Assembly (NCBI GenBank): GCA_021648225.1
Contig: JAKITE010000002.1
Span: forward strand, 5,391 to 69,390
Length of the DNA: 64,000 nt
Reading direction: 5' to 3'
Source of the DNA: Paracoccaceae bacterium
GTDB lineage: Bacteria; Pseudomonadota; Alphaproteobacteria; Rhodobacterales; Rhodobacteraceae
Position numbers and translations under genes: made by a program. A model generated the notes under the pieces. It was not told the origin of the DNA. It worked only from the letters and a program-made list of their open reading frames with translations, and made no database searches. This document shows positions 14,616 through 27,378 of this stretch, piece by piece; positions within the stretch are counted from its first letter, which is position 1, and every line of letters starts with the position of its first letter.

Positions 14616-15107
14616 TTAGCGGTAAGGCGCATCAAGTTCGATATTGCGGGCAATTTCGGCTTCCCAGCGTTCACCGTTGGCAAGCAATTTTTCTTTGTCG
14701 TAAAACAGTTCTTCGCGGGTTTCTGTGGCGTATTCAAAATTCGGGCCTTCAACAATGGCATCCACAGGACAAGCTTCCTGACAGAAACCGCAAAAAATGC
14801 ATTTGGTCATGTCGATGTCATAACGCGTGGTGCGGCGAGAGCCATCGATCCGCGGTTCTGCATCAATGGTGATGGCCTGCGCGGGGCAAATCGCCTCACA
14901 TAATTTGCAGGCAATGCAGCGTTCTTCACCATTGGGATAGCGACGCAAAGCGTGTTCGCCGCGAAAACGCGGGCTAAGCGGGCCTTTTTCATGGGGGTAG
15001 TTAATGGTGGCTTTGGGGCGGAAAAAATATTTCATACCGGTGCCAAACGCACCAATAAAATCCGTCAGCAAAAACCGCTTGATTACTTTTGAAACTGTAA
15101 CCGTCAT
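14616..15107 (-). CDS. nuoI: NADH-quinone oxidoreductase subunit I (2x[4Fe-4S])
   Basis: Two ferredoxin-type motifs, [12 protein letters not shown] and [12 protein letters not shown]. Confidence 0.92.
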
Positions 15108-15108
15108 A

Positions 15109-16149
15109 TCAGCCCCCTATCGCCCAACGTGCATAGGCAGGAACGCCCATTTGCGCCATTGCCGCCACAAAAACCACCCAACCCAGCGATAGCGGCAGGA
15201 ATACTTTCCAGCCCAGACGCATCAATTGATCATAGCGATAGCGCGGCACCAATGCCTTGACCATGGCAAACATAAAGAACAGTGCAGCCATTTTCAGAAC
15301 CATCCACCAGACCCCGTCGGGCAGGAATTCAACCGGCGACAGCCAACCACCAAAGAACAGGATCGCCATCAGCGCGCACATCAGCACCACGGCCATCAAT
15401 TCGCCGATCATAAACAGCAAAAACGGCGTCGCGGAATATTCGACCTGAAAACCGGCAACCAGTTCGGCCTCGGCCTCGGGCAGATCAAATGGCGGGCGGT
15501 TGGTTTCGGCAAGGGCCGATACAAAAAACAGAATGACCATCGGGAAATGCGGCAGCCAATACCAGCCAAGCGCGCCATAACCGACGTCTTGCGCGTTAAC
15601 AATGGCGCTAAAATTCAATGACCCCGTGGAAATCAATACCCCCACGATGATAAAGCCGATCGAGACCTCGTATGAAATCATCTGCCCGGCCGAACGCAGC
15701 GCCCCCAGAAACGGATATTTGGAATTCGAGGCCCAGCCGCCCAGAATAACCCCGTAAACCTCCAATGATCCAATCGCGAAAATATACAAAACACCGACAT
15801 TAAGGTCCGAAACCACCCAGCCATCGGCAAACGGAATCACCGCCCAGGCCACCACTGCCAGAATAAAGGTCAGCATAGGTGCTATGAAAAACACGGGCTT
15901 GTCAGCCCCCGCAGGCACTACGACTTCTTTGACGATATATTTGATAAAATCAGCAAAGCTTTGCAGCAAGCCAAACGGGCCGACCATGTTTGGCCCTTTG
16001 CGCATCTGCACCGCTGCCCAGATTTTGCGATCTGCATACATAAGGAACGCCAAAGCCACCAGAATAAGCACAACCACCAGCAATGCCTGCCCCAGAATCA
16101 CCAGAAACGTGCCAAAATAGAACCCGAATATATTGATCATAAAGTCCAT
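15109..16149 (-). CDS. nuoH: NADH-quinone oxidoreductase subunit H
   Basis: 346-aa ND1-like polytopic protein, in operon position. Confidence 0.9.
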
Positions 16150-16152
16150 ATT

Positions 16153-18165
16153 CTACTCCGCGGCCATTGGTTTTTGCGCCTGATTCAACTGGCTGAGTTC
16201 TGCCATAGTTTTAGAGGCACGCGCAATCGGATTGGTCAAATAATAGTCAGAAATCGCACAATTAAATGCGCCGCCCTTCAGTTTCTTTGGCTTGGCCTTA
16301 ACCCATTGATTTTCCGGCACAGCGTCCAGTGCTGCCAGATGCGGGAATTCCTTGAAAAGCAGGCTGCGAAGCTGTGCCAGATTGTCAAACGGCAAGGCCG
16401 CACCCAGTTCAGCCGACAGCGCGCGTAGTATCGCCCAGCCTTCGCGGGCATCACCCGGGGCAAACCCAGCGCGATTGGCCATTTGCGGGCGGCCTTCGGT
16501 ATTGACAAAAATACCGGATTCTTCGGTGTAAGCCGCGCTTGGTAAAATCACATCAGCGCGGTGCGCGCCACGATCCCCGTGCGAGCCTTGATAAATCACA
16601 AACGGGCCGGCATCGATATCCAGCTCGTCGGCGCCAAGGTTATAAATCACCTCGGCCCCGTCAAGCGCGTTAATCATGCCACCCTCGGTGTTAAACCCGA
16701 TATCCATGCCGCCAACCCGCGCAGCGGCGGTGTGCAGCACCATGAATTTGGAATTGGTGTTTTCAACCAGCTTTTTGGCGGCTTCCAGAACCGCTTCGCC
16801 GTCTTTGCCGGTTAATGCAGCCTGCCCGATGATCACCACGGCATCCATGTCTTTGGCAGGGCCGGTATCCTGATTGGCCAGTTTTTCCAGCGCGGCACGA
16901 TCATTGCCGACATGGGTATATTCATACGTTAAATCAACGGCTTCGCCAAGCAAACCAACCGTAGCCCCCGCCGCCCAGGCCTTGCGAATACGCGCATTCA
17001 GCACCGGCGATTCCATGCGTGGGTTGGTCCCGATCAATTGAATCATCTGGGCATTGTCAATGTCTTCAATGCTGGCAGTGCCCACATATCCGGCACGATC
17101 ATCAATCGGCAAATAGGCCCCGTCAACCCGGCATTCCAGATTGCCACCGGCACCACCAATCAGCGATTTAAGCGCATACATGGTTTCCACGCTGGCCAGA
17201 TCACCGGCAATCGCGGCGATCTTCTTGCCATCAACCGCATCGACAATAGCCTTGAATGCTTGGTCCCAACTGGCCTTTTGCAGCTTGCCATCAACCCGCA
17301 CATAAGGCGTATCCAGCCGCTGGCTGCGCAAGCCATCCCACACAAAACGGGTTTTGTCGGAAATCCATTCTTCATTGATGCCATCATGATTGCGCGGCAA
17401 TATCCGCATGACTTCGCGGCCTTTGGTATCCACCCGAATGTTTGATCCAAGCGCGTCCATCACGTCAATGGTCTCGGTTTTTCGTAATTCCCAAGGGCGT
17501 GCTGAAAACGCATATGGCTTGCTGGTCAGCGCGCCAACCGGACAAAGATCAATGATATTGCCTTGCAGATTGCTGTCGAGCGTCGCGCCCAGATAGGTGG
17601 TAATTTCCGCATCCTCGCCACGGCCGGTCTGGCCCATGGTCATGATGCCTGCAACCTCGGAAGTAAACCGCACACAGCGGGTGCAGGAAATACAGCGGGT
17701 CATGGTGGTGGCCACCAACGGCCCCAGTTGCAGATCATCGCTGGCGCGTTTGGCCTCGCGAGAGCGGCTGAAATCAACGCCGTAAGCCATGGCCTGATCT
17801 TGTAGATCACATTCGCCGCCCTGATCACAGATCGGGCAATCCAGCGGGTGGTTCAGCAGCAAAAATTCCATCACGCCTTCGCGGGCCTTTTTCACCATAG
17901 GGGATTTGGTTTTCACCACCGGCGGCTGGCCTTCTGGCCCGGGGCGCAGATCACGCACCTGCATGGCGCAAGACGCGGCAGGTTTGGGCGGGCCACCCAC
18001 GACCTCCACCAGACACATGCGGCAGTTGCCGGCAATGCTTAGGCGTTCGTGATAACAAAAACGCGGAATTTCAATTCCGGCAAGCTCCGCGGCCTGAAGA
18101 ATGGTCATCGCGCCATCTACTTCCAGCTCAACGCCGTCGATGATGATTTTTTTAAGGTTTGTCAT
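16153..18165 (-). CDS. nuoG: NADH-quinone oxidoreductase subunit G (75-kDa Fe-S subunit)
   Basis: 670 aa with an N-terminal 2Fe-2S/4Fe-4S cysteine pattern: [33 protein letters not shown] and [10 protein letters not shown]. Confidence 0.92.
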
Positions 18166-18216
18166 TGGCAGATTCCTGCAAAAACCCGACCATTGGCAGG
18201 GTGTTCAAAAAATTAT

Positions 18217-18612
18217 TCATATCGTGTCCCAAGATGCTGCCTCGGGGTCGAGGTCGGAAATACATTCCCATACTTCGCGAAAATCCATAAAGCCGGAAAA
18301 CAGATTGCCGTTAAATACCTGACCGGTCAAACAAATTTCGCTTACGCGACGCGCGCTAATCACAAAAGGATTTTCAAATATTTCAAAAAACGAACGGCTA
18401 ACCCGCTCATTTTGATTGTCAAAAACCTTGGCGTGGACAAGATAGCGCCGCACCAGATAACTGGTTTTTTGAAATTCACGCAAACATTGCTGCTGTGCCA
18501 TCCGGTCAGGCCCGACTTCGGCACGGCAAATTCTTTGCCCCGCATCCGAATGCGTCGCCGCACTGGCCAGTGCGGGGGGCAACAGAAATAGCAATATAAG
18601 CAGGTATTTCAC
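18217..18612 (-). CDS. Hypothetical secreted protein embedded between nuoF and nuoG
   Basis: 131 aa with a signal peptide (MKYLLILLFLLPPALASAATH) and 4 Cys. It is co-oriented and tightly spaced: 3 nt after the nuoF stop and 51 nt before the nuoG start. The region is AT-richer than its flanks by eye. Confidence 0.6.
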   Translation of the reverse strand: MKYLLILLFLLPPALASAATHSDAGQRICRAEVGPDRMAQQQCLREFQKTSYLVRRYLVHAKVFDNQNERVSRSFFEIFENPFVISARRVSEICLTGQVFNGNLFSGFMDFREVWECISDLDPEAASWDTI

Positions 18613-18615
18613 TGG

Positions 18616-19911
18616 TTACTCCGCTGCAACCGCGCTGACGCGGCCGGTTTTTTGATGTTTGATCCGGTCCTCAATCTCATTTCTGAAATGCCGCACCAGC
18701 CCCTGAATTGGCCATGCCGCCGCATCGCCAAGCGCGCAGATCGTGTGGCCTTCAACCTGTTTGGTCACGTCCAGCAACATGTCGATTTCCTCCAGCTCGG
18801 CCTCGCCGGTTACCAAACGGTCCATGACCCGCATCATCCAGCCGGTGCCTTCGCGGCACGGGGTGCATTGGCCGCAGCTTTCGTGTTTGTAAAATTTGCT
18901 CAACCGCCAGATGGCTTTGATTACGTCGGTGGATTGGTCCATCACGATAACCGCCGCTGTGCCCAGCCCTGATCGTTGCTCGCGCAGCCAGTCAAAATCC
19001 ATGATCGCATCATTGCAGATATCCGCAGGCAATAACGGCACCGAAGAACCACCCGGAATCACCGCTTTCAGGTTTTTCCAGCCGCCGCGCACCCCACCGC
19101 AATGCTTATCCAGCAATTCGCGCAACGGAATAGACATGGCTTCTTCAACCACACAAGGGTTAACCACATGTCCCGAAATACCAAACAGCTTTGTGCCCGC
19201 GTTATTTGCGCGGCCAATACCGGCAAACCAATCCGGCCCACGGCGCAAAATGGTGGGCACAACCGCAATCGATTCAACATTGTTTACCGTGGTCGGGCAG
19301 CCATAAAGGCCGACACCGGCGGGAAAAGGCGGTTTCATGCGCGGCATGCCTTTGCGCCCCTCAAGGCTTTCCAGCAAGGCGGTTTCTTCGCCGCAAATAT
19401 ACGCACCCGCGCCATGCACCAGATAAAGATCAAAATCCCAACCGGATTTGGCAGCGTTTTTGCCCAGCAATCCCGCATCATAACATTCATCAATGGCATT
19501 TTGCAGGGCTTCGCGTTCGCGGATAAATTCACCGCGAATATAGATATATCCCGCATGCGCGCCCATGCCAAAACCGGCAATCAAACAGCCCTCGATCAGG
19601 GTATGGGGATCATGGCGCATGATCTCGCGGTCTTTGCAAGTGCCCGGTTCGGATTCGTCGGCATTGACCACCAGATAGCTGGGGCGACCGTCGCTTTCCT
19701 TGGGCATAAACGACCATTTAAGGCCGGTCGGAAAGCCCGCACCACCACGACCGCGCAGGCCGGAACCTTTGACCTGTTCAACAACCCAGTCGCGGCCTTC
19801 CTTGATAAAGCCTGCTGTGCCGTTCCAGTGGCCACGCGATTTTGCGCCCTTAAGCGAACGGTCATGCATGCCGTATAAATTGGTAAAGATCCGGTCTTGG
19901 TCTTTGAGCAT
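18616..19911 (-). CDS. nuoF: NADH-quinone oxidoreductase subunit F (FMN/NADH-binding)
   Basis: 431 aa with the [13 protein letters not shown] motif and the 4Fe-4S motif [12 protein letters not shown]. Confidence 0.93.
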
Positions 19912-19912
19912 T

Positions 19913-20137
19913 TTACTCTCCGCTGTTTTGGCGCGAACGCCAAACCCTAAAAAATACGATCATCGCAAAGGCAAAACCTGCCAAGGCCATGAAATCAATC
20001 AAAAACGCAAAGCGCACCGGCATGCCTAGCTGGCCACCGATCCACGAACCACCCATAAGCAAAACCACTGCAGCAATCATCACATAGGATGCCAGCCGGG
20101 TCTGTTTACGTTGGTTTTCTTCTGCGTTTTTGGTCAT
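19913..20137 (-). CDS. Small two-TM membrane protein (resembles the DUF5337-type ORF found between nuoE and nuoF in Rhodobacterales)
   Basis: 74 aa with two hydrophobic helices. It lies 1 nt upstream of the nuoF start. The family name is from memory and was not searched. Confidence 0.55.
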
Positions 20138-20139
20138 GG

Positions 20140-20694
20140 TTATTTTGCCAGTTCTTTGGCTTGATCTACCCAGTTGTCACGGCTGACACGGCCCTTGAAA
20201 CTAACTAGATTCTGGTCGGCCCACTCTACTTCGGCGCTGCTCCAGCTTGCGATCTGGTCAAAATGAAATACGCCGGCTTTGTTCAGCTCTTTTTCCAGCT
20301 TTGGCCCGACGCCTTTGATTTTTTTCAAATCATCGCCTTTGCCGTCGCGGGCTTCGGTCAGTAATTCGGGCTTGCCATCTGTTGCTGCTGTCACTGGTTC
20401 GGATTCGGGTTCGGATACTTGCTCCGGTTCCGGTGTCGGCTCTGGCGCTGCGGGTGCGGGGGCTGGTGGCGTTTGCGCCGCGGCCGGAGCAACCGGAGCA
20501 CTAACATCGGATGCTTGGCTTTCGGCCTGTGCCTTGCACAAATACGACGATAAAAACCAGCCAACAACCAACAGTACCAGCAACATAAAAATACTTGCTG
20601 TCAAAGACATCCATGGCATTAGAACCACAGTAAATATTACTGAAATAATTGCGGCAATAATAAAATTACGCGTCATACATTTATTATAATCCAT
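20140..20694 (-). CDS. Membrane-anchored protein carrying a copy of the NuoE C-terminal helix-hairpin-helix module
   Basis: 184 aa: N-terminal TM helices, then a Pro/Ala/Glu linker, then a C-terminal block of about 77 aa. By hand alignment, about 58 of those 77 residues are identical to the C-terminus of the adjacent NuoE ([29 protein letters not shown]...NLVSFKGR). Confidence 0.7.
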   Translation of the reverse strand: MDYNKCMTRNFIIAAIISVIFTVVLMPWMSLTASIFMLLVLLVVGWFLSSYLCKAQAESQASDVSAPVAPAAAQTPPAPAPAAPEPTPEPEQVSEPESEPVTAATDGKPELLTEARDGKGDDLKKIKGVGPKLEKELNKAGVFHFDQIASWSSAEVEWADQNLVSFKGRVSRDNWVDQAKELAK

Positions 20695-20706
20695 TATTTT
20701 ATCTCC

Positions 20707-21729
20707 CTATTTCATTAATTCTTTGGCCTGCTTTACCCATTCATCCCGTGTAATTCGCCCCTTGAAGCTGACAAGGTTTTCATCTGCCCAAGCAATTTCC
20801 TTGGCACTCCAGTTTGCGATCTGGTCAAAATGAAACACCCCCGCCCCGTTTAATTCTTTTTCCAGTTTCGGACCAACACCGCTGATTTTTTTCAAATCAT
20901 CGGCGCCGCCATCACGCGGCTTGCTTAACAATACCGGCTTATCCGCATCTGCTGTTGCCACCACAGGTTCGGCGGGCTTTTTTACAGCGGCCTTTTCAGG
21001 TTTTGCCTTGGCTTTTGGTTTTGGTTTCGGGCGTGTCAAAACCGGAACCTCGTCCCCCTGAATACGTTTAACCGTATCCCCCAGCGCAACCGCAATCCCG
21101 ACCGAGCCGTTGAATTCTTCGCCGGTAAAATCTTTTAATGTGGTCAATCCGCCCAGCGGCTCACAAGAAAAACGCCCGTTTTGTGAGCCGGGTTTTGGCA
21201 CGTCGCCACGGGCAAAACCGGCCAATATCTTACGAAAGCTATCGGCAGTCAGGTCCTCGTAATAATCCTTGCCGATCTGGGCCATGGGGGCATTGGCACA
21301 AGCCCCGAGGCATTCGACCTCTTCCCAGCTAAAATTACCGTCCGCAGAAATTTCATGGGGGTTCGGCGCAATGACTTCGCGGCATATCCCGATCAGGTCT
21401 TCAGCGCCGCAAATCATACAGGTTGTGGTACCGCAAACCTGCACATGGGCAATCGCACCCACGGGCTGCAACTGGAACATGAAATAGAAACTGGCAACTT
21501 CCAGCACGCGGATTTCAGCCATGCCAAGCATATTGGCCACATGTTCAATGGCAGGCTGGCTTACCCAGCCTTCTTGTTCCTGTGCGCGCCAAAGCAGCGG
21601 AATAACCGCGCTGGCCTGACGGCCCTCGGGGTATTTGGTGATCTGGCCCTCGGCCCATGCCAGATTGGCTGGGGTAAAGGCAAAGCTTTCAGGCTGGATG
21701 GCGTGTAAACGGCGTAGCATTACCGGCAA
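20707..21729 (-). CDS. nuoE: NADH-quinone oxidoreductase subunit E with Lys/Pro linker and C-terminal HhH extension
   Basis: 340 aa. The thioredoxin-like 2Fe-2S core carries [11 protein letters not shown] and CLGACANAP. It is followed by a [18 protein letters not shown] linker and a [11 protein letters not shown] HhH module. Confidence 0.9.
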
Positions 21730-22970
21730 TTCCCCGCAGTAAGAGTAACAACATCACGGCTTGGGGGCAGTGTAATGACCCCTTCCGCTTCTAATTCGGT
21801 GATCAGGCCAAAGGCCGCATTCTGGTCCAGCCCGTCAACCGGCAGCAAGCTGCTGAATTCACCGGCAGTCATGGTGCAGTTATTGCCACGTAATACCTCG
21901 ATAAAGATATCACGAGGTTCCATCGGGCCGCTGCCAACCGCAACACATAGCGGCGCAAGTATCTGCAAGGTCTGGCCGCCATCGGGCGAGGATGCCCGCC
22001 CGTCATTCATCATGCGCGAAGCAATGCCCATGGCCAGATTATAATCCATACCGGCAGCATCGGTCATATCACGCGCATTGGCCTGCGTGATTTCACACGC
22101 ATTTGCCGCTACCATCCTCAAAAACTGTGCTTCCGGATCATCGGAGGTCTCTGGCGTTGCGACAACAACTTCAGGCGCATCACTGCCAGCTTCAACCGGG
22201 GTTGCCGCCATGGCCAAATCCGTGCAATCAGGGCTGGTGATGATCAAGGTTGTATTGTCTTCGGAATAATAGCCCAAACCAGCCTCAACCAGTTCGTCAG
22301 CAACAAGATAGACGTCTTCCATCATCAGTCCGCTTGCGGGAAACAGTTGACGCGCATCTATTTCGGTCAACCTGCAATCATTTTGCGCCATAACCGACAT
22401 GAAAACCCCCTCAAGGCTACCATTATTTTCAACCGGAGCCGGGCTTTCGCTGGCAACAGGGGTGCAATAATCAGCGTTAATGGTCAGAGACATCCGGTCT
22501 TCCGATACCATAGCAATCCCCAAATCCATCAGCTCGTCAGCCATTTGGTCGCCGGTCCGGGCAGACATGCCATTCTCGGGAAGGGTCGTTTTCATTTGTT
22601 CCTCGGTCATCCGGCACCCCAGTGGTGCCAGAATTCCAATAAACAGTGCTTGATCCGCCGTTAGTTCAATATTCCGCGTTGCTTGGCTATTAATATCGCA
22701 ACTGCCATCAATGATTCTAAGGATTTCGGATTCAAATGCGACAACCCCTTGGTCGATCAGCGCTGTGGCTATTTCGCGGGTCAGGGATTTGTCAAAACCG
22801 TTCGCCGGAAAAATAATTTCAGCCTCGGCTTCGGTCATGGAACAGCCGTTATCGGCAATAAGATCAAGAAAAGCAGAAACCTGCATCGGGTCAGCATCTT
22901 GCGCAGCAGCCGGCTGCACCAGAAATATGCCCAGGCCGGCAATAAAAGCTTTTACAATTTTCATCATCAC
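21720..22970 (-). CDS. Secreted protein built of five ~50-residue Cys-pair modules, embedded between nuoD and nuoE
   Basis: 416 aa with a signal peptide ([25 protein letters not shown]). The ten Cys sit at 43/91, 119/169, 199/249, 292/342 and 365/415, so spacing within each pair is 48-50 residues. Each module has a C-x-(M/L/I)T(E/Q) motif. The ORF overlaps the nuoE start by 10 nt. Confidence 0.7.
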
Positions 22971-22986
22971 ACCCTTTCAAAACAGC

Positions 22987-24201
22987 TCAGCGATCAATTT
23001 CCCCGAACACCACATCCATAGAGCCTATCAACGCAGCAATATCTGCCAATTGATGGCCCTTGCCCATGAAATCCATCGCCGCCAGATGGGCATAGCCCGG
23101 CGCGCGGATTTTGACTTTGTAAGGCATATTGGTGCCATTCGCGATCAGATAGACACCAAATTCGCCTTTGGGGGCCTCCACCGCCACATAAACCTCGCCT
23201 TCGGGCACATGGAACCCTTCGGAATATAGTTTGAAATGATGGATCAATGCCTCCATCGAGGTTTTCATATCGCCGCGTTTAGGCGGTGTCAGCTTGCCCC
23301 GCGCCAGCACATCCTGGCCTTTGCATTCATTCAACTTTTCAATGGCTTGCAGAATGATTTTTACGCTTTCGCGCATTTCGGCCATACGCATTAAATAGCG
23401 ATCATAACAATCACCATTGGTGCCAACCGGAATTTGGAAATCGAATTCATCGTAACATTCATAAGGCTGATTGCGGCGCAAATCCCATGCAATACCGCTG
23501 GAACGCAGCATCACCCCCGTCAAGGCGTAATCCAGCGCGTCTTGCGGTTTCAAAATGCCGATATCGACATTACGTTGCTTGAATATCCGGTTTTCGGTCA
23601 GCAGGCTGGCCATGTCATCAAGGGTTGCCGGAAATTGCTCGGCCCAAATCGCGATATCATCCACCAGCTTTTGCGGCAGGTCCTGATGCACGCCGCCGGG
23701 GCGAAAATAATTGGCGTGCATGCGCGCCCCGCAAGCCCGTTCACAAAAAATCATCAGCGATTCGCGCTGATCAAACCCCCAAAGATTGGGTGTCAGCGCG
23801 CCAACATCCATGCCCTGCGAACCGACATTCATCAGGTGATTCATAATCCGGCCAATTTCGCTGAACAGCACACGAATAAGCGAAGCACGGCGCGGAATTT
23901 CGGTTTTGGTCAGCTTTTCAATCGCCAGACACCAGGCATGTTCCTGATTCATCGGCGCGACATAATCAAGCCGGTCAAAATACGGCAGGCTTTGCAGATA
24001 GGTCCGGCTTTCCATCAGTTTTTCGGTGCCGCGATGCAACAGGCCGACATGCGGGTCGGCGCGCTCGACAATTTCGCCGTCCAGTTCCAGCACCATGCGC
24101 AAAACGCCGTGGGCGCTGGGGTGTTGCGGGCCAAAATTGATATTGAAATTGCGGATTTTATGTTTGCCGGTCAGGGCATCGCCGTTGGAACCGTCCATCA
24201 T
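22987..24201 (-). CDS. nuoD: NADH-quinone oxidoreductase subunit D (49-kDa)
   Basis: 404 aa with the [13 protein letters not shown] motif and a C-terminal DVVFGEIDR. Confidence 0.93.
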
Positions 24202-24803
24202 TTTACGTCTCCCTTTTCATCACCGGGCAGGATATATTCCGCACCCTCCCACGGAGACATGAAATCAAACTGGCGATATTCCTGGGTCAGGGATACCGGT
24301 TCGTATACACAACGCTTTTCAACCTCGTCATAGCGCATTTCCACATAACCCGTGGTCGGGAAATCTTTACGCAGCGGGTGGCCGGTAAAGCCATAATCGG
24401 TCAGCAAACGGCGCAGATCCGGATGGCCGGAAAACCGGATGCCATACATATCAAACACTTCGCGCTCAAACCAGTTTGCCGAGGGGTGGATATCGGTAAT
24501 GGTAGGGGCGTTTTCATTTTCAGACAGGTCCGCCTTGATCCGCACCCGCTGGTTCAGCACCATCGACAGGAAATGATAAACCAGCTCGAACCGCTTTTCA
24601 CGCTCGGGGTAATCCACGGCAGTAATGTCGATCATCATGGTAAACTGGCAAGAGGCATTGGTGCGCAGAAATTCCACAAAACCGGGAATGCTGGCAGGGA
24701 TAATCCAAATCACCAATTCGCCGTTGACCACCTCAAAACGGCGCACCGCGTTGGTTTGCTTGGCCTCGATCAGATTGCCGAGTTCGTTAAGCGCTTCTGA
24801 CAT
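24198..24803 (-). CDS. nuoC: NADH-quinone oxidoreductase subunit C (30-kDa)
   Basis: 201 aa with the ERExxDMxGIxFxGHPDLRR-type motif ([22 protein letters not shown]). It overlaps nuoD by 4 nt. Confidence 0.92.
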
Positions 24804-24809
24804 ATCTTT

Positions 24810-25699
<890 letters not shown>

Positions 25700-26148
25700 A
25701 TTAGCATTCCTTCACAGTCTTGCGCCCAAAATGTTGCAGCGCATAAGAGTCGCAACAGGTTTACCCCCCGCCACTGGGCAGGTCAACCGAACAAGCGTGC
25801 AATTACACATATTCACCTTTCCTGAATTGACCTGAATCAAGCTGGAATTATGGAAAATTAGCGAGGCAAGGTTAACAAGCTGACAAAGCCGGTTTTATCT
25901 TGGCATTCGCGTGATCAAGCCCCGAACGCCACCTTTGCAAATCCGGCATTTATTTCAATTCCCGACAGGTATTCATGTGCCGGATAAGTAAAACAATGGG
26001 TTTTTGACCGAAAACCGGCTAAAATTGTAACATTCATAAAGCAACCGTTATCTCACCGGCTTGTGAATAGCAGTTGATTGGAACTCTGTTTAGCAATTGT
26101 AACGTCCACTGTGACAATGTTTCAATATACCAAAAAGGGAAATAAAAA

Positions 26149-26457
26149 ATGTCTAACACTATTGTAAAAAGCCTTGTAATCGCGTCTTCGGTTGCGGCTG
26201 CTGTTGCCGCAAACACCGGCACGGTTGCTGCGCAAGCTTCGGAAAAATGCTATGGCATTGCGTTGGCTGGCGAAAACGACTGCGCGGCAGGCCCCGGCAC
26301 CACTTGTGCGGGCAGCTCAACCGTTGATTATCAGGGCAATGCCTGGTCGATGGTGCCTGCGGGCACCTGCGAAACCACCAAGGTTGAAGGTATGGATTCC
26401 ATGGGCAACGAACGCATGGGTTCGCTGGAAGCGCTGGAACGCGATGTTCCTGCATAA
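26149..26457 (+). CDS. bufA: DUF2282-type RiPP precursor (bufferin-like)
   Basis: 102 aa with a Sec signal peptide ending VAAQA/SE. The core is EKC-x10-C-x7-C-x20-C and contains [13 protein letters not shown] and DYQGNAW. An AAAGGGAAA RBS lies upstream. Confidence 0.8.
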
Positions 26458-26526
26458 TTTCAGGCCTGTATAAAATAACCGGGCCTGCCATTGGCGGGCC
26501 CGATCCCTTGCTTTGAAAGACCGAAA

Positions 26527-27378
26527 ATGAACAATTATGCCACCCAAAGCAGTATTCCCGCCCTGGCAGGCGTGGGCTATAAACCCCAGCACCTTGACGA
26601 TATCAATGCGGATGCGGGTAATGTAAAATGGCTTGAAATCCATGCCGAGAACTATATGGCCGATGGCGGGCCACCCATCGCCCAGCTGCGCCATTTACGC
26701 GACAGGTTTCCGGTTTCCTGCCACGGCGTCGGCCTGTCCATCGGTGGCGAACTGCCATTAAACAAAGACCATCTGTTGCGGCTGAAAAAGCTGATCGACT
26801 GGCTGCAACCCGGGTTGTTTTCCGAACATCTGGCATGGTCCACCCATGAGGCCGGTTTTTTGAATGACCTGTTGCCCTTGCCCTATAATACCGCAACCGT
26901 AAAACGGGTAGCAGACCATATTGACGAAGTGCAGGAATTTCTGGGCCGGCAAATGTTGCTGGAAAATCCGTCGGCTTATGTGGCGTTCAAATCGACAACC
27001 ATGGATGAAATCGATTTTTTGAACGAAATTGTCGCGCGCACCGGCTGCGGATTGCTGCTGGATGTCAACAATGTGTTTGTTTCAAGCACCAACCAGCAAT
27101 ACTCCCCCGAGGATTATATCGACCGTTTTCCGGTTGAACATATCGGCGAACTGCACCTTGGCGGCCATGCCGAAGATACGGATGATTACGGTGAAAAACT
27201 GTTGATCGACAGCCATGACAACCCCGTGGTTGATCCGGTCTGGAAATTGTTTGACCGGCTTTTGGCGCGCTCCGGCCCCAAACCCGCCTTGATAGAATGG
27301 GATAACGACATCCCCGACTGGCCGGTGCTGGAAAACGAAGCCGCACGGGCAACCGCAGCATTGGGTCGCGCAGCATGA
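26527..27378 (+). CDS. bufB: DUF692 / MNIO family (multinuclear non-haem iron oxidative) RiPP maturase
   Basis: About 283 aa from the ATG at 26527 (the ORF track starts at 26491). It carries the VGYKPQH N-terminus, EIHAENY, LHLGGH and IEWDND motifs typical of DUF692 TIM-barrel proteins. Confidence 0.8.
   Translation: MNNYATQSSIPALAGVGYKPQHLDDINADAGNVKWLEIHAENYMADGGPPIAQLRHLRDRFPVSCHGVGLSIGGELPLNKDHLLRLKKLIDWLQPGLFSEHLAWSTHEAGFLNDLLPLPYNTATVKRVADHIDEVQEFLGRQMLLENPSAYVAFKSTTMDEIDFLNEIVARTGCGLLLDVNNVFVSSTNQQYSPEDYIDRFPVEHIGELHLGGHAEDTDDYGEKLLIDSHDNPVVDPVWKLFDRLLARSGPKPALIEWDNDIPDWPVLENEAARATAALGRAA

Follow-up and report, generated by a model that had tools for sequence, protein, structure and literature searches.

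The nuo operons of the Rhodobacteraceae, a family that includes Paracoccus and Rhodobacter, the bacteria usually taken as models of mitochondrial-type complex I, hold more reading frames than subunit genes: six or seven URFs are present in the nuo operon of Rhodobacter capsulatus and the nqo operon of Paracoccus denitrificans, and to our knowledge these extra reading frames have been without explanation since the 1990s. One extra frame, here called gene X, separates nuoD from nuoE in the 64,000-nucleotide stretch of Paracoccaceae bacterium DNA that we analyzed (the window), and it raises the questions of (i) whether it is a functional gene; (ii) what its product looks like and where in the cell it resides; and (iii) whether that product works with complex I or only shares its operon.

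As the original prediction had it, a reading frame, of 416 codons, does occupy the space between the two subunit genes (Table 1). The GAAAGGG sequence at 22978-22972 lies 4 and 7 nt upstream of two ATG codons, a placement which suggests that translation starts at one of these (22967 or 22964) and not at the GTG at 22970. At the other end, the stop codon TAA (21722-21720) and the nuoE start codon ATG (21720-21718) have one base in common. An overlap of 10 nt had been proposed, but nuoE starts at this ATG and not at an upstream TTG in homologous loci, so the overlap is a single nucleotide. The same TAATG junction was found again in five homologous loci, consistent with the proposed coupling of gene X to nuoE. 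The promoter and terminator scan gave counts no higher than in shuffled sequences, with no noteworthy terminator from nuoD through X to nuoE, and an Rfam scan of positions 15000-27000 matched no RNA family.

Table 1. Gene X, its neighbors and its parts (window coordinates)
Feature	Position	Strand	Remarks
nuoD (49-kDa subunit), upstream neighbor	22987..24201	-	stop 16 nt before the GTG of X
Shine-Dalgarno-like site GAAAGGG	22972..22978	-	read from sequence
Gene X, exported five-module protein (export predicted)	21720..22970	-	true start likely ATG 22967 or 22964
Signal peptide, residues 1-23, Sec type, predicted cleavage before Q24	22902..22970	-	by inspection
Module 1 (type A), residues 30-92, Cys43/Cys91, predicted winged-helix fold	22695..22883	-	alignment, AF2/Foldseek
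Module 2 (type B), residues 106-170, Cys119/Cys169	22461..22655	-	
Module 3 (type C), residues 186-250, Cys199/Cys249	22221..22415	-	
Module 4 (type D), residues 279-343, Cys292/Cys342, conserved wing SPDGGQTL	21942..22136	-	in 22/23 clade proteins analyzed
Module 5 (type E), residues 352-416, Cys365/Cys415, most conserved	21723..21917	-	in 23/23 clade proteins analyzed
TAATG junction, X stop and nuoE ATG sharing one base, putative translational coupling	21718..21722	-	sequence and homologous loci
nuoE (2Fe-2S thioredoxin-like, helix-hairpin-helix tail), downstream neighbor	20707..21720	-	counted from ATG

Gene X is a genuine gene under selection. We identified 22 close homologues, and dN/dS for X is 0.19-0.29 as compared with 0.01-0.09 for the core nuo genes, while dS is similar to that of the neighboring nuo genes; selection on X is thus roughly 2-14 times more relaxed than on the core genes. 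Neither of two outcomes named in the original prediction as arguing against it, disruption of the frame in close relatives and loss of the cysteine pairs from homologues, was observed: the frame is intact and the pairs are retained.

The protein has ten cysteines, all of them in the five pairs listed in Table 1, exactly at the residues first proposed. The five modules align with one another pairwise (z = 5.9-16.1; no score was reached in 300 shuffles), and each comprises about 62 residues, the modules following one another like beads on a string with linkers rich in proline, alanine and glutamate. The motif first suggested for them agrees with the consensus of 76 modules, ...NGCxxTxxxAxxxLxxxG...LxxxGxA...LxL....C, in which the cysteine pair is invariant (76 of 76 modules, as well as all 22 close homologues) at a spacing of 48-51; the further proposal that each domain is closed by its own pair is therefore well in line with the sequences, and DsbA-made disulfides would staple each domain in the periplasm. 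Since Tandem Repeats Finder detected no DNA-level tandem repeat, the repeats are old; a recent duplication of DNA can be rejected, modules being only 24-29% identical to module 1 and lacking any nucleotide repeat.

The repeat architecture had initially been unfamiliar, and structure prediction followed by a Foldseek search, as then recommended, indicates that it is a string of winged-helix (WH) domains. AlphaFold2 (AF2) models a single module with high confidence (pLDDT 94.9, pTM 0.78) in the order H1-b1-H2-H3-b2-b3, that is, H-E-H-H-E-E, with one cysteine directly before strand b1 and the other a few residues past strand b3. In the full-length model (pTM 0.29) the modules have pLDDT >90 and the linkers <50, and DSSP assigns the same order to four of the five modules, the exception being module 4, whose strand b2 is just two residues long (cut-off three residues). 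All of the 50 top PDB matches to the single module were WH domains (TM 0.49-0.73, mostly about 0.6-0.7; rmsd mostly about 2-3 Å), with E-values of just 0.03-0.16 because the domain is short. The full chain matched the tandem-WH proteins UFL1/DDRGK1 (E 7.6e-6), TFIIIC tauB and SelB. As the modeled modules have the element order of the fold, H1-b1-H2-H3-b2-wing-b3, and superpose on solved WH domains, we assign the X module to the winged-helix fold on the strength of these models. In a PDB sequence search, the module profile gave weak hints to the winged helices of SelB, AraR and TFE, the best overall match being a de novo designed protein (E 1.9e-4).

The N-terminus of X (residues 1-24, by inspection) has the n-h-c pattern of a signal peptide with an AxA site followed by QD, which bears out the signal peptide originally called. 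It is the sole hydrophobic segment of the protein. As it contains no twin-arginine motif, Tat export was rejected; a lipoprotein reading was likewise rejected, the lipobox cysteine being absent from X, although some distant relatives have one. Of the family proteins whose sequence begins with M, 86% have a hydrophobic N-terminal segment; one member occurs as a fusion with Sel1/TPR repeats and a peptidoglycan-binding domain (PG_binding_1). These sequence features agree with the export proposed at the outset, and the product of X would be delivered to the periplasm via the Sec pathway. Mature X is strongly acidic (pI 4.05, charge about -46 at pH 7, 64 Asp+Glu vs 20 Lys+Arg), as is every one of its modules (pI 4.05-4.33) and the family as a whole (median pI 4.15, with pI >7 in only 1% of members).

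Searches of X against Pfam and NCBIfam yielded no family at E<=1, and its single match in PHROGs was noise (E 0.45). Among single-module relatives, too, no Pfam hit passed the curated threshold in searches extended to E<=10 (best DSBA, E 0.007, 16.6 bits, cut-off 25.6), and database annotation of the family does not go beyond 'hypothetical protein'. A module profile search of 1.84 billion proteins returned 570 cluster representatives with 1-11 modules each. In profile searches of genomes, the module family was found in 73 of 401 Rhodobacteraceae and in none of 397 genomes of other alphaproteobacterial families. Our literature searches yielded no description of an X protein or of a URF of its type, nor of exported winged-helix arrays with an invariant cysteine pair. 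By these searches, the family appears to be previously undescribed and restricted to the Rhodobacteraceae.

In 64 of the 73 carrier genomes (about 88%), spanning many genera, modules are encoded between nuoD and nuoE, and this position is kept while sequence identity drops to 20-30%. The remaining nine have a module solely outside nuo; overall, about 12 genomes have module genes elsewhere than in nuo, and the neighborhoods of these copies share no common theme. The nuoD-nuoE gap of other genera holds unrelated small secreted cysteine-containing proteins, and in four of ten sampled non-carrier genomes nuoD directly abuts nuoE. Within the clade of the window, proteins follow the scheme A-B-(0-6 variable modules)-C-D-E, of which X is the minimal form (A-B-C-D-E) in a clade-specific expansion, and the stop codons of their genes overlap the start of nuoE. 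Close relatives differ through clean gain or loss of modules (one has two extra modules immediately upstream of module 3), and each position retains its own orthologous type, [A/J]-[B/K]-(variable)-[C/O]-D-E. Invariant residues concentrate in modules D and E, which are tightly constrained over their entire surface and have near-invariant residues in helices, wing and loops.

Comparison with known systems places X apart from each of them. Tandem-WH proteins such as SelB (C-terminal WH1-4), ScpB/JetB, STK19, RPC62, UFL1-DDRGK1 and ESCRT-II VPS25 also contain serial WH domains of 60-70 residues, which they use mostly for binding protein or RNA; however, they are cytoplasmic or nuclear and without stapling disulfides, whereas X is acidic, predicted to be exported and equipped with a cysteine pair per domain. 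Their scores in the PDB profile search went no lower than E 0.08, and none has significant sequence similarity to X. The URFs of the R. capsulatus nuo and P. denitrificans nqo operons, among them Urf1/protein-3h/protein-O, resemble X in being extra, interleaved, membrane-targeted genes of the same bacterial family. Urf1, though, is encoded between nuoE and nuoF and consists of a U-shaped transmembrane helix pair with a helix-hairpin-helix tail, while X lies between nuoD and nuoE, has no hydrophobic segment other than its signal peptide, would be soluble after cleavage and is built of WH modules; we therefore do not assign X to the Urf1/protein-3h type. A match to that type is found elsewhere in the window, in orf184, one of four extra reading frames in the soluble-arm part of the operon. 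All four are membrane-targeted: X and orf131 by signal peptides, orf184 by transmembrane helices and a 74-residue DUF5337 frame by two transmembrane helices.

On the side of mitochondrial complex I that is equivalent to the bacterial periplasm, small helical subunits (NDUFA8, NDUFS5, NDUFB7 and NDUFB10) are held together by disulfides. These are CHCH (twin Cx9C) helix hairpins, in contrast to the WH modules of X with cysteines 48-50 residues apart in each pair; the family's spacing of 48-51 and the lack of a Cx9C motif rule X out as a CHCH-domain subunit, and the likeness would be one of analogy only, not homology. Nor did X match the family of any core or known supernumerary complex I subunit (Nuo/Nqo 1-14, NDUFS4, NDUFS6, NDUFA12, PIMT). 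In P. denitrificans, bacterial loops take the place of NDUFA8 and NDUFS5 according to the structural study. The 2.3 Å structure of that complex contains no periplasmic extra subunit and none derived from an operon URF, in a genus that may or may not carry the module.

Taken together, these results lead us to propose, with a probability of about 0.5, that X serves as a protein-binding scaffold in the periplasm and is produced along with complex I; it would be neither a nucleic-acid binder nor a core subunit. Synthesis of X on the nuo mRNA would keep pace with that of complex I, the near-invariant modules D and E of X would hold a conserved partner, such as the membrane arm of complex I at its periplasmic face or a different component of the respiratory chain, and its N-terminal and middle modules vary by lineage. 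A more specific version is that members of the family serve complex I of the Rhodobacteraceae as lineage-specific accessory subunits or assembly factors in the periplasm, disulfide-stapled, docking via D and E on that face of the membrane arm and functionally equivalent to the disulfide-stapled subunits of the mitochondrial intermembrane space despite an unrelated WH fold; in this detailed form we hold the proposal to be unlikely.

Several observations sit uneasily with a scaffold. The family is patchy, being limited to 73 of 401 Rhodobacteraceae, and nuoD abuts nuoE in four of ten sampled non-carriers; a range of 1-11 module copies and relaxed selection are both odd for a stoichiometric partner; nine carriers have the module outside nuo only; and the Paracoccus structure lacks such a subunit.

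X may instead be a periplasmic or envelope protein unrelated to complex I that makes use of steady nuo transcription, inserted in a gap that tolerates insertions, its task being, for example, cation binding by the acidic surface or envelope- or peptidoglycan-associated scaffolding. The unrelated secreted proteins in the same gap of other genera, the module genes away from nuo, the peptidoglycan-binding fusion and the fast evolution of the family, with its clean module gains and losses, are all in keeping with such a passenger, for which the urf1 product, located in the photosynthetic LH1-RC complex and not in complex I, offers a precedent. However, if the site were no more than neutral parking, one fold family would hardly have persisted there for so long, across many genera and at 20-30% identity, and the conserved stop/start coupling to nuoE and the tight constraint on the entire surface of D and E point the same way; we consider the passenger reading possible, if somewhat unlikely. 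The gene might also act in cis: co-translational export of any signal-peptide ORF among the soluble peripheral-arm genes would anchor the polycistronic nuo transcript at the membrane (transertion), allowing NuoE, NuoF and NuoG to be made beside the membrane arm, and the mature domain of X would need only to fold harmlessly. The membrane targeting of all four extra frames, the different secreted proteins filling the gap in different genera and the freely varying module number would suit this role. Yet the near-invariant D and E residues argue for a specific trans-acting interaction, each position retains its own module type, the gap is devoid of an ORF in four of ten sampled relatives and module genes are present outside nuo too, all of which makes a role in cis improbable.

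The two remaining readings fare worse. The winged helix is a classical DNA/RNA-binding fold, and X could on that ground be a periplasmic nucleic-acid-binding protein acting, for instance, in DNA uptake or on gene-transfer-agent DNA. Members of that class have a basic recognition helix or wing and a positive surface, whereas all modules of X are acidic and a basic pI is rare in the family; given the pI and net charge of mature X, nucleic-acid binding is highly improbable. Similarly, the lack of a database family, with annotation at most as 'hypothetical protein', might suggest a chance ORF or a decaying remnant, but this reading has a negligible probability in view of intact orthologues with dN/dS of 0.19-0.29, invariant cysteine pairs, a confidently predicted fold, conserved synteny and 570 cluster representatives; as far as sequence evidence reaches, conservation and selection exclude a spurious ORF.

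The reading frame between nuoD and nuoE has thus been given a predicted fold, a predicted cellular address and a defined family. Because the family has cultured carriers (Abyssibius alkaniclasticus, with three modules, Roseovarius carneus, Neogemmobacter tilapiae, Shimia ponticola and Profundibacterium mesophilum), the relation of X to complex I is open to direct testing. Should X contact complex I or a different respiratory complex on the periplasmic side, it would represent a bacterial accessory factor of a new kind; otherwise, the nuoD-nuoE gap would clearly exemplify how a space within an operon can act as a nursery for secreted proteins.

The original prediction placed a gene of 416 codons, here called X, between nuoD and nuoE of the complex I operon, and the ORF listing bears this out, with X inside a same-strand nuoA-nuoG array (see the table). 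The overlap with nuoE, however, is 1 nt rather than the 10 nt first claimed, because gene calls in five homologous loci start nuoE at an ATG that shares one base with the stop codon of X (TAATG). The GTG of X is followed by two ATGs, and a GAAAGGG motif stands 4 and 7 nt upstream of these, so one of the two is probably the true start. No DNA-level tandem repeat underlies the modules of X, and positions 15000-27000 of the window gave no Rfam match. The genome is 85% complete and assembled into 130 contigs.

Coordinates of X, its neighbors, the other extra ORFs of the operon, and a second secreted family found in the nuoD-nuoE gap of other genera
Feature	Position	Strand	Basis or remark
X, 416-codon ORF	21720..22970	-	ORF listing
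X stop, TAA	21722-21720	-	read from sequence
nuoE ATG	21720-21718	-	start used by gene calls in five homologous loci
nuoD, neighbor of X on the side away from nuoE	22987..24201	-	ORF listing
orf184, 184-aa ORF between nuoE and nuoF	20140-20694	-	ORF listing
74-aa ORF just before nuoF, two hydrophobic helices	19913-20137	-	ORF listing
orf131, 131-aa ORF between nuoF and nuoG	18217-18612	-	ORF listing
172-188-aa four-Cys secreted family	L015 1749-2267; L019 79-639; L105 97-663; L109 69-602		L105 and L109 on re-oriented copies

A clear signal peptide and five related modules, each with one cysteine pair, had also been predicted, and both features were recovered. The translation contains exactly ten cysteines, at 43/91, 119/169, 199/249, 292/342 and 365/415. 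Pairwise alignment of five segments, each running from 13 residues before the first cysteine through the second, gave z values of 5.9-16.1 against 300 shuffles, none of which reached an observed score. By inspection, the N-terminus has n-, h- and c-regions of the Sec type, with QDADP following the predicted cleavage site, and has neither a lipobox nor a twin-arginine motif (signal peptides were assessed by eye and with a hydropathy window rather than with a trained predictor). Mature X has 392 residues (about 41.6 kDa), a pI of 4.05 and a net charge of about -46; the individual modules have pI values of 4.05-4.33, and the linkers are rich in Pro, Ala, Glu and Val.

For the full chain, AlphaFold2 with a 22-row alignment gave a pLDDT above 90 in the modules and below 50 in the linkers, with a pTM of 0.29, which means that X is predicted to consist of well-defined beads on a flexible string. 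The elements of each module follow the order H1-b1-H2-H3-b2-b3 (b2 is just two residues in module 4), an order unchanged when module 1 was modeled alone with a 76-module alignment (pLDDT 94.9, pTM 0.78). With a single module as Foldseek query against the PDB, all 50 of the 50 best matches were winged-helix domains, including IclR, MarR/OhrR, Z-alpha, cullin WHB, MCM WH and Rpa2 WH (TM 0.49-0.73, mostly about 0.6-0.7; rmsd mostly about 2-3 Å; E 0.03-0.16, modest values being expected for 60 residues). The top full-chain matches carry several such domains in series: UFL1/DDRGK1 (E 7.6e-6), TFIIIC tauB, the SelB C-terminus, RPC62, STK19, JetB/ScpB and VPS25. The modules are thus confidently predicted to adopt the winged-helix fold; sequence searches of Pfam, NCBIfam, PHROGs and the PDB gave no significant match. 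The first cysteine directly precedes b1, and the second comes 4-5 residues after b3; b1 and b3 are paired strands in a winged helix, so a stapling disulfide in each module is plausible.

Among 5.8 billion proteins, a word-indexed search picked out 22 of 236-727 aa, the window's own included, none with a Pfam domain. These homologues keep the cysteine pairs on which the original prediction hinged: in all 22 the pairs are 48-51 residues apart, apart from one truncated module (35), and each protein has 3-8 pairs, the shortest proteins being fragments. Relative to the closest relative, L025 (dS 0.17), Nei-Gojobori dN/dS is 0.19 for X, with 0.018 (nuoD), 0.09 (nuoE) and 0.014 (nuoF) for the core genes; in comparisons with two more distant loci the value for X is 0.25-0.29. 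These ratios indicate purifying selection on X, relaxed roughly 2-14-fold relative to the core subunits. X differs between L025 and the window by a clean, in-frame change of two whole modules. At the level of sequence, X is a real, selected gene.

A profile of 64 positions, built from 76 modules and scored against 1.84 billion cluster representatives, matched 570 proteins at E<=1e-3, of which 272 pass E<=1e-10; the number of modules matched per protein ranges from 1 to 11. Databases name the proteins of this family 'hypothetical protein' throughout. For 158 retrieved M-starting proteins, almost all of which belong to the family, pI has a median of 4.15 (below 5 in 92%, above 7 in 1%), and 86% have a hydrophobic N-terminal window. 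Nucleic-acid binding, despite the fold, is strongly disfavored by this acidity of X and its family. One member from a metagenome-assembled Pseudomonadota genome (P0101, 1012 aa) joins three modules to TPR/Sel1 repeats and, at its C-terminus, to PG_binding_1, a peptidoglycan-binding domain that is consistent with a periplasmic location.

We sampled 401 genomes: one for each of 400 genera of Rhodobacteraceae/Paracoccaceae, whose kinship makes them non-independent, and the window's own. By profile 73 are carriers (62 of 355 when only high-quality genomes are counted); whole-protein search with X matched 28. A sample of 397 alphaproteobacterial genomes outside the family, drawn from some 207 families, gave no match at E<=1e-4, so that the modules are, on these searches, restricted to Rhodobacteraceae. 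Carriers in culture are, among others, Neogemmobacter tilapiae, Shimia ponticola, Profundibacterium mesophilum, Abyssibius alkaniclasticus and Roseovarius carneus; of the window's own clade, only metagenome-assembled genomes are known.

Every matched locus was fetched, and nuoD and nuoE were placed by tblastn. In 64 of the 73 carriers modules lie between these genes (in a few, abutting nuoE at a contig end); nine have them solely outside nuo, three of these being weak matches, and three genomes have a second copy besides that in nuo. In some gaps (L014, for example) there are one to three separate genes of one module, all with signal peptides of their own; others hold fusions of 2, 3, 5 or 10 modules, and another genome of the window's genus (L086) has 11 modules in total. 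Ten non-carriers were inspected: in four nuoD abuts nuoE (gaps of 39-134 nt), and six have other small ORFs there, mostly secreted and cysteine-containing. These include at least one divergent relative with an insertion, so the carrier share of 18% of genera is a lower bound. Small exported cysteine proteins seem to have a hot spot in this gap.

Other loci add further variety. A separate single-module gene precedes the big multi-module gene after nuoD in L004 (7634-7954) and L086 (4195-4407), another secreted family (172-188 aa) occupies the gap in other genera, and longer winged-helix-like variants have cysteines 65-68 apart (L108 89-445; L019 682-1367). A sulfotransferase gene (Sulfotransfer_1/3) is inserted between nuoC and nuoD in two relatives of the window, L001 (5328-6182) and L003 (5764-6639); the window lacks it, and its nuoC and nuoD overlap.

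Clustering of 140 modules from 23 proteins of the window's clade revealed a fixed frame, [A or J]-[B or K]-(0-6 variable modules)-[C or O]-D-E, of which X is the minimal form, A-B-C-D-E; the modules are thus positionally orthologous rather than homogenised. In the full-length alignment, invariant residues fall mostly in D and E (helices, H2-H3 loop and wing; for example SPDGGQTL and LP..RDVVTL), which suggests that this C-terminal pair holds a specific conserved interaction and that the remaining chain would be adjustable. Signs of very recent amplification occur elsewhere, as three modules with identical scores in genome G117 (L046 5117-5704) and four nearly identical modules in protein P0055, whereas the modules of X are old and diverged.

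Every additional ORF among the soluble-arm genes of the operon is membrane-targeted. The product of orf184 combines TM helices and an Ala/Pro linker with a helix-hairpin-helix domain at its C-terminus, a copy of that in the NuoE tail; this C-terminal part gives a below-threshold match to the NuoE model PRK12373 (NCBIfam). orf184 matches the 'Urf1' type, to which X does not belong. The N-terminal fragment of Urf1 is protein-3h/protein-O, recently found in LH1-RC photosynthetic complexes (PMC13066640). ORFs at the position of the 74-aa ORF in related loci carry Pfam DUF5337. orf131 has a signal peptide, four cysteines and no family match, and its position is conserved in L025 and L026 (dN/dS about 0.25).

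That X is a real, selected gene for an acidic protein with export signals and a confidently predicted winged-helix fold, that its family is restricted to Rhodobacteraceae, and that its position and its junction with nuoE are conserved, we regard as near certain. The fuller reading, in which it would also form its disulfides, reside in the periplasm, be co-expressed with complex I and act as a protein-binding scaffold, has a probability of about 0.5; that its partner is a respiratory-chain component is a tentative proposal, against which we would sooner bet. The patchy distribution, the range of 1-11 modules and the relaxed selection on X all point against stoichiometric membership of complex I, as does the 2.3 Å structure from Paracoccus denitrificans, which has no periplasmic or URF-encoded subunit (Paracoccus is not an established carrier).

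The main rival to the scaffold reading, namely that X merely hitch-hikes in the operon and has an unrelated envelope role, draws on module copies outside nuo, the fusion to a peptidoglycan-binding domain, the mixed content of the gap and the Urf1 precedent; we consider it less likely than the scaffold reading, if the strongest of the alternatives. More speculatively, co-translational export might keep nuo mRNA at the membrane, in keeping with putative Sec/SRP targeting of four out of four extra soluble-arm ORFs; a purely cis role sits poorly with the tight conservation of D and E, and we judge it improbable.

X matches no curated family. It resembles tandem winged-helix proteins in fold but lacks the basic surface that is the functional hallmark of those binding nucleic acids. 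In location it belongs with the URFs long known, but still uncharacterised, from the complex I operons of Rhodobacter and Paracoccus (six or seven URFs in Paracoccus and R. capsulatus), and it recalls, by analogy only, the disulfide-stapled intermembrane-space subunits of mitochondrial complex I. What is new is the setting: a winged-helix domain that is predicted to be exported and cysteine-stapled and that occurs in arrays, encoded at a constant position within the complex I operon.
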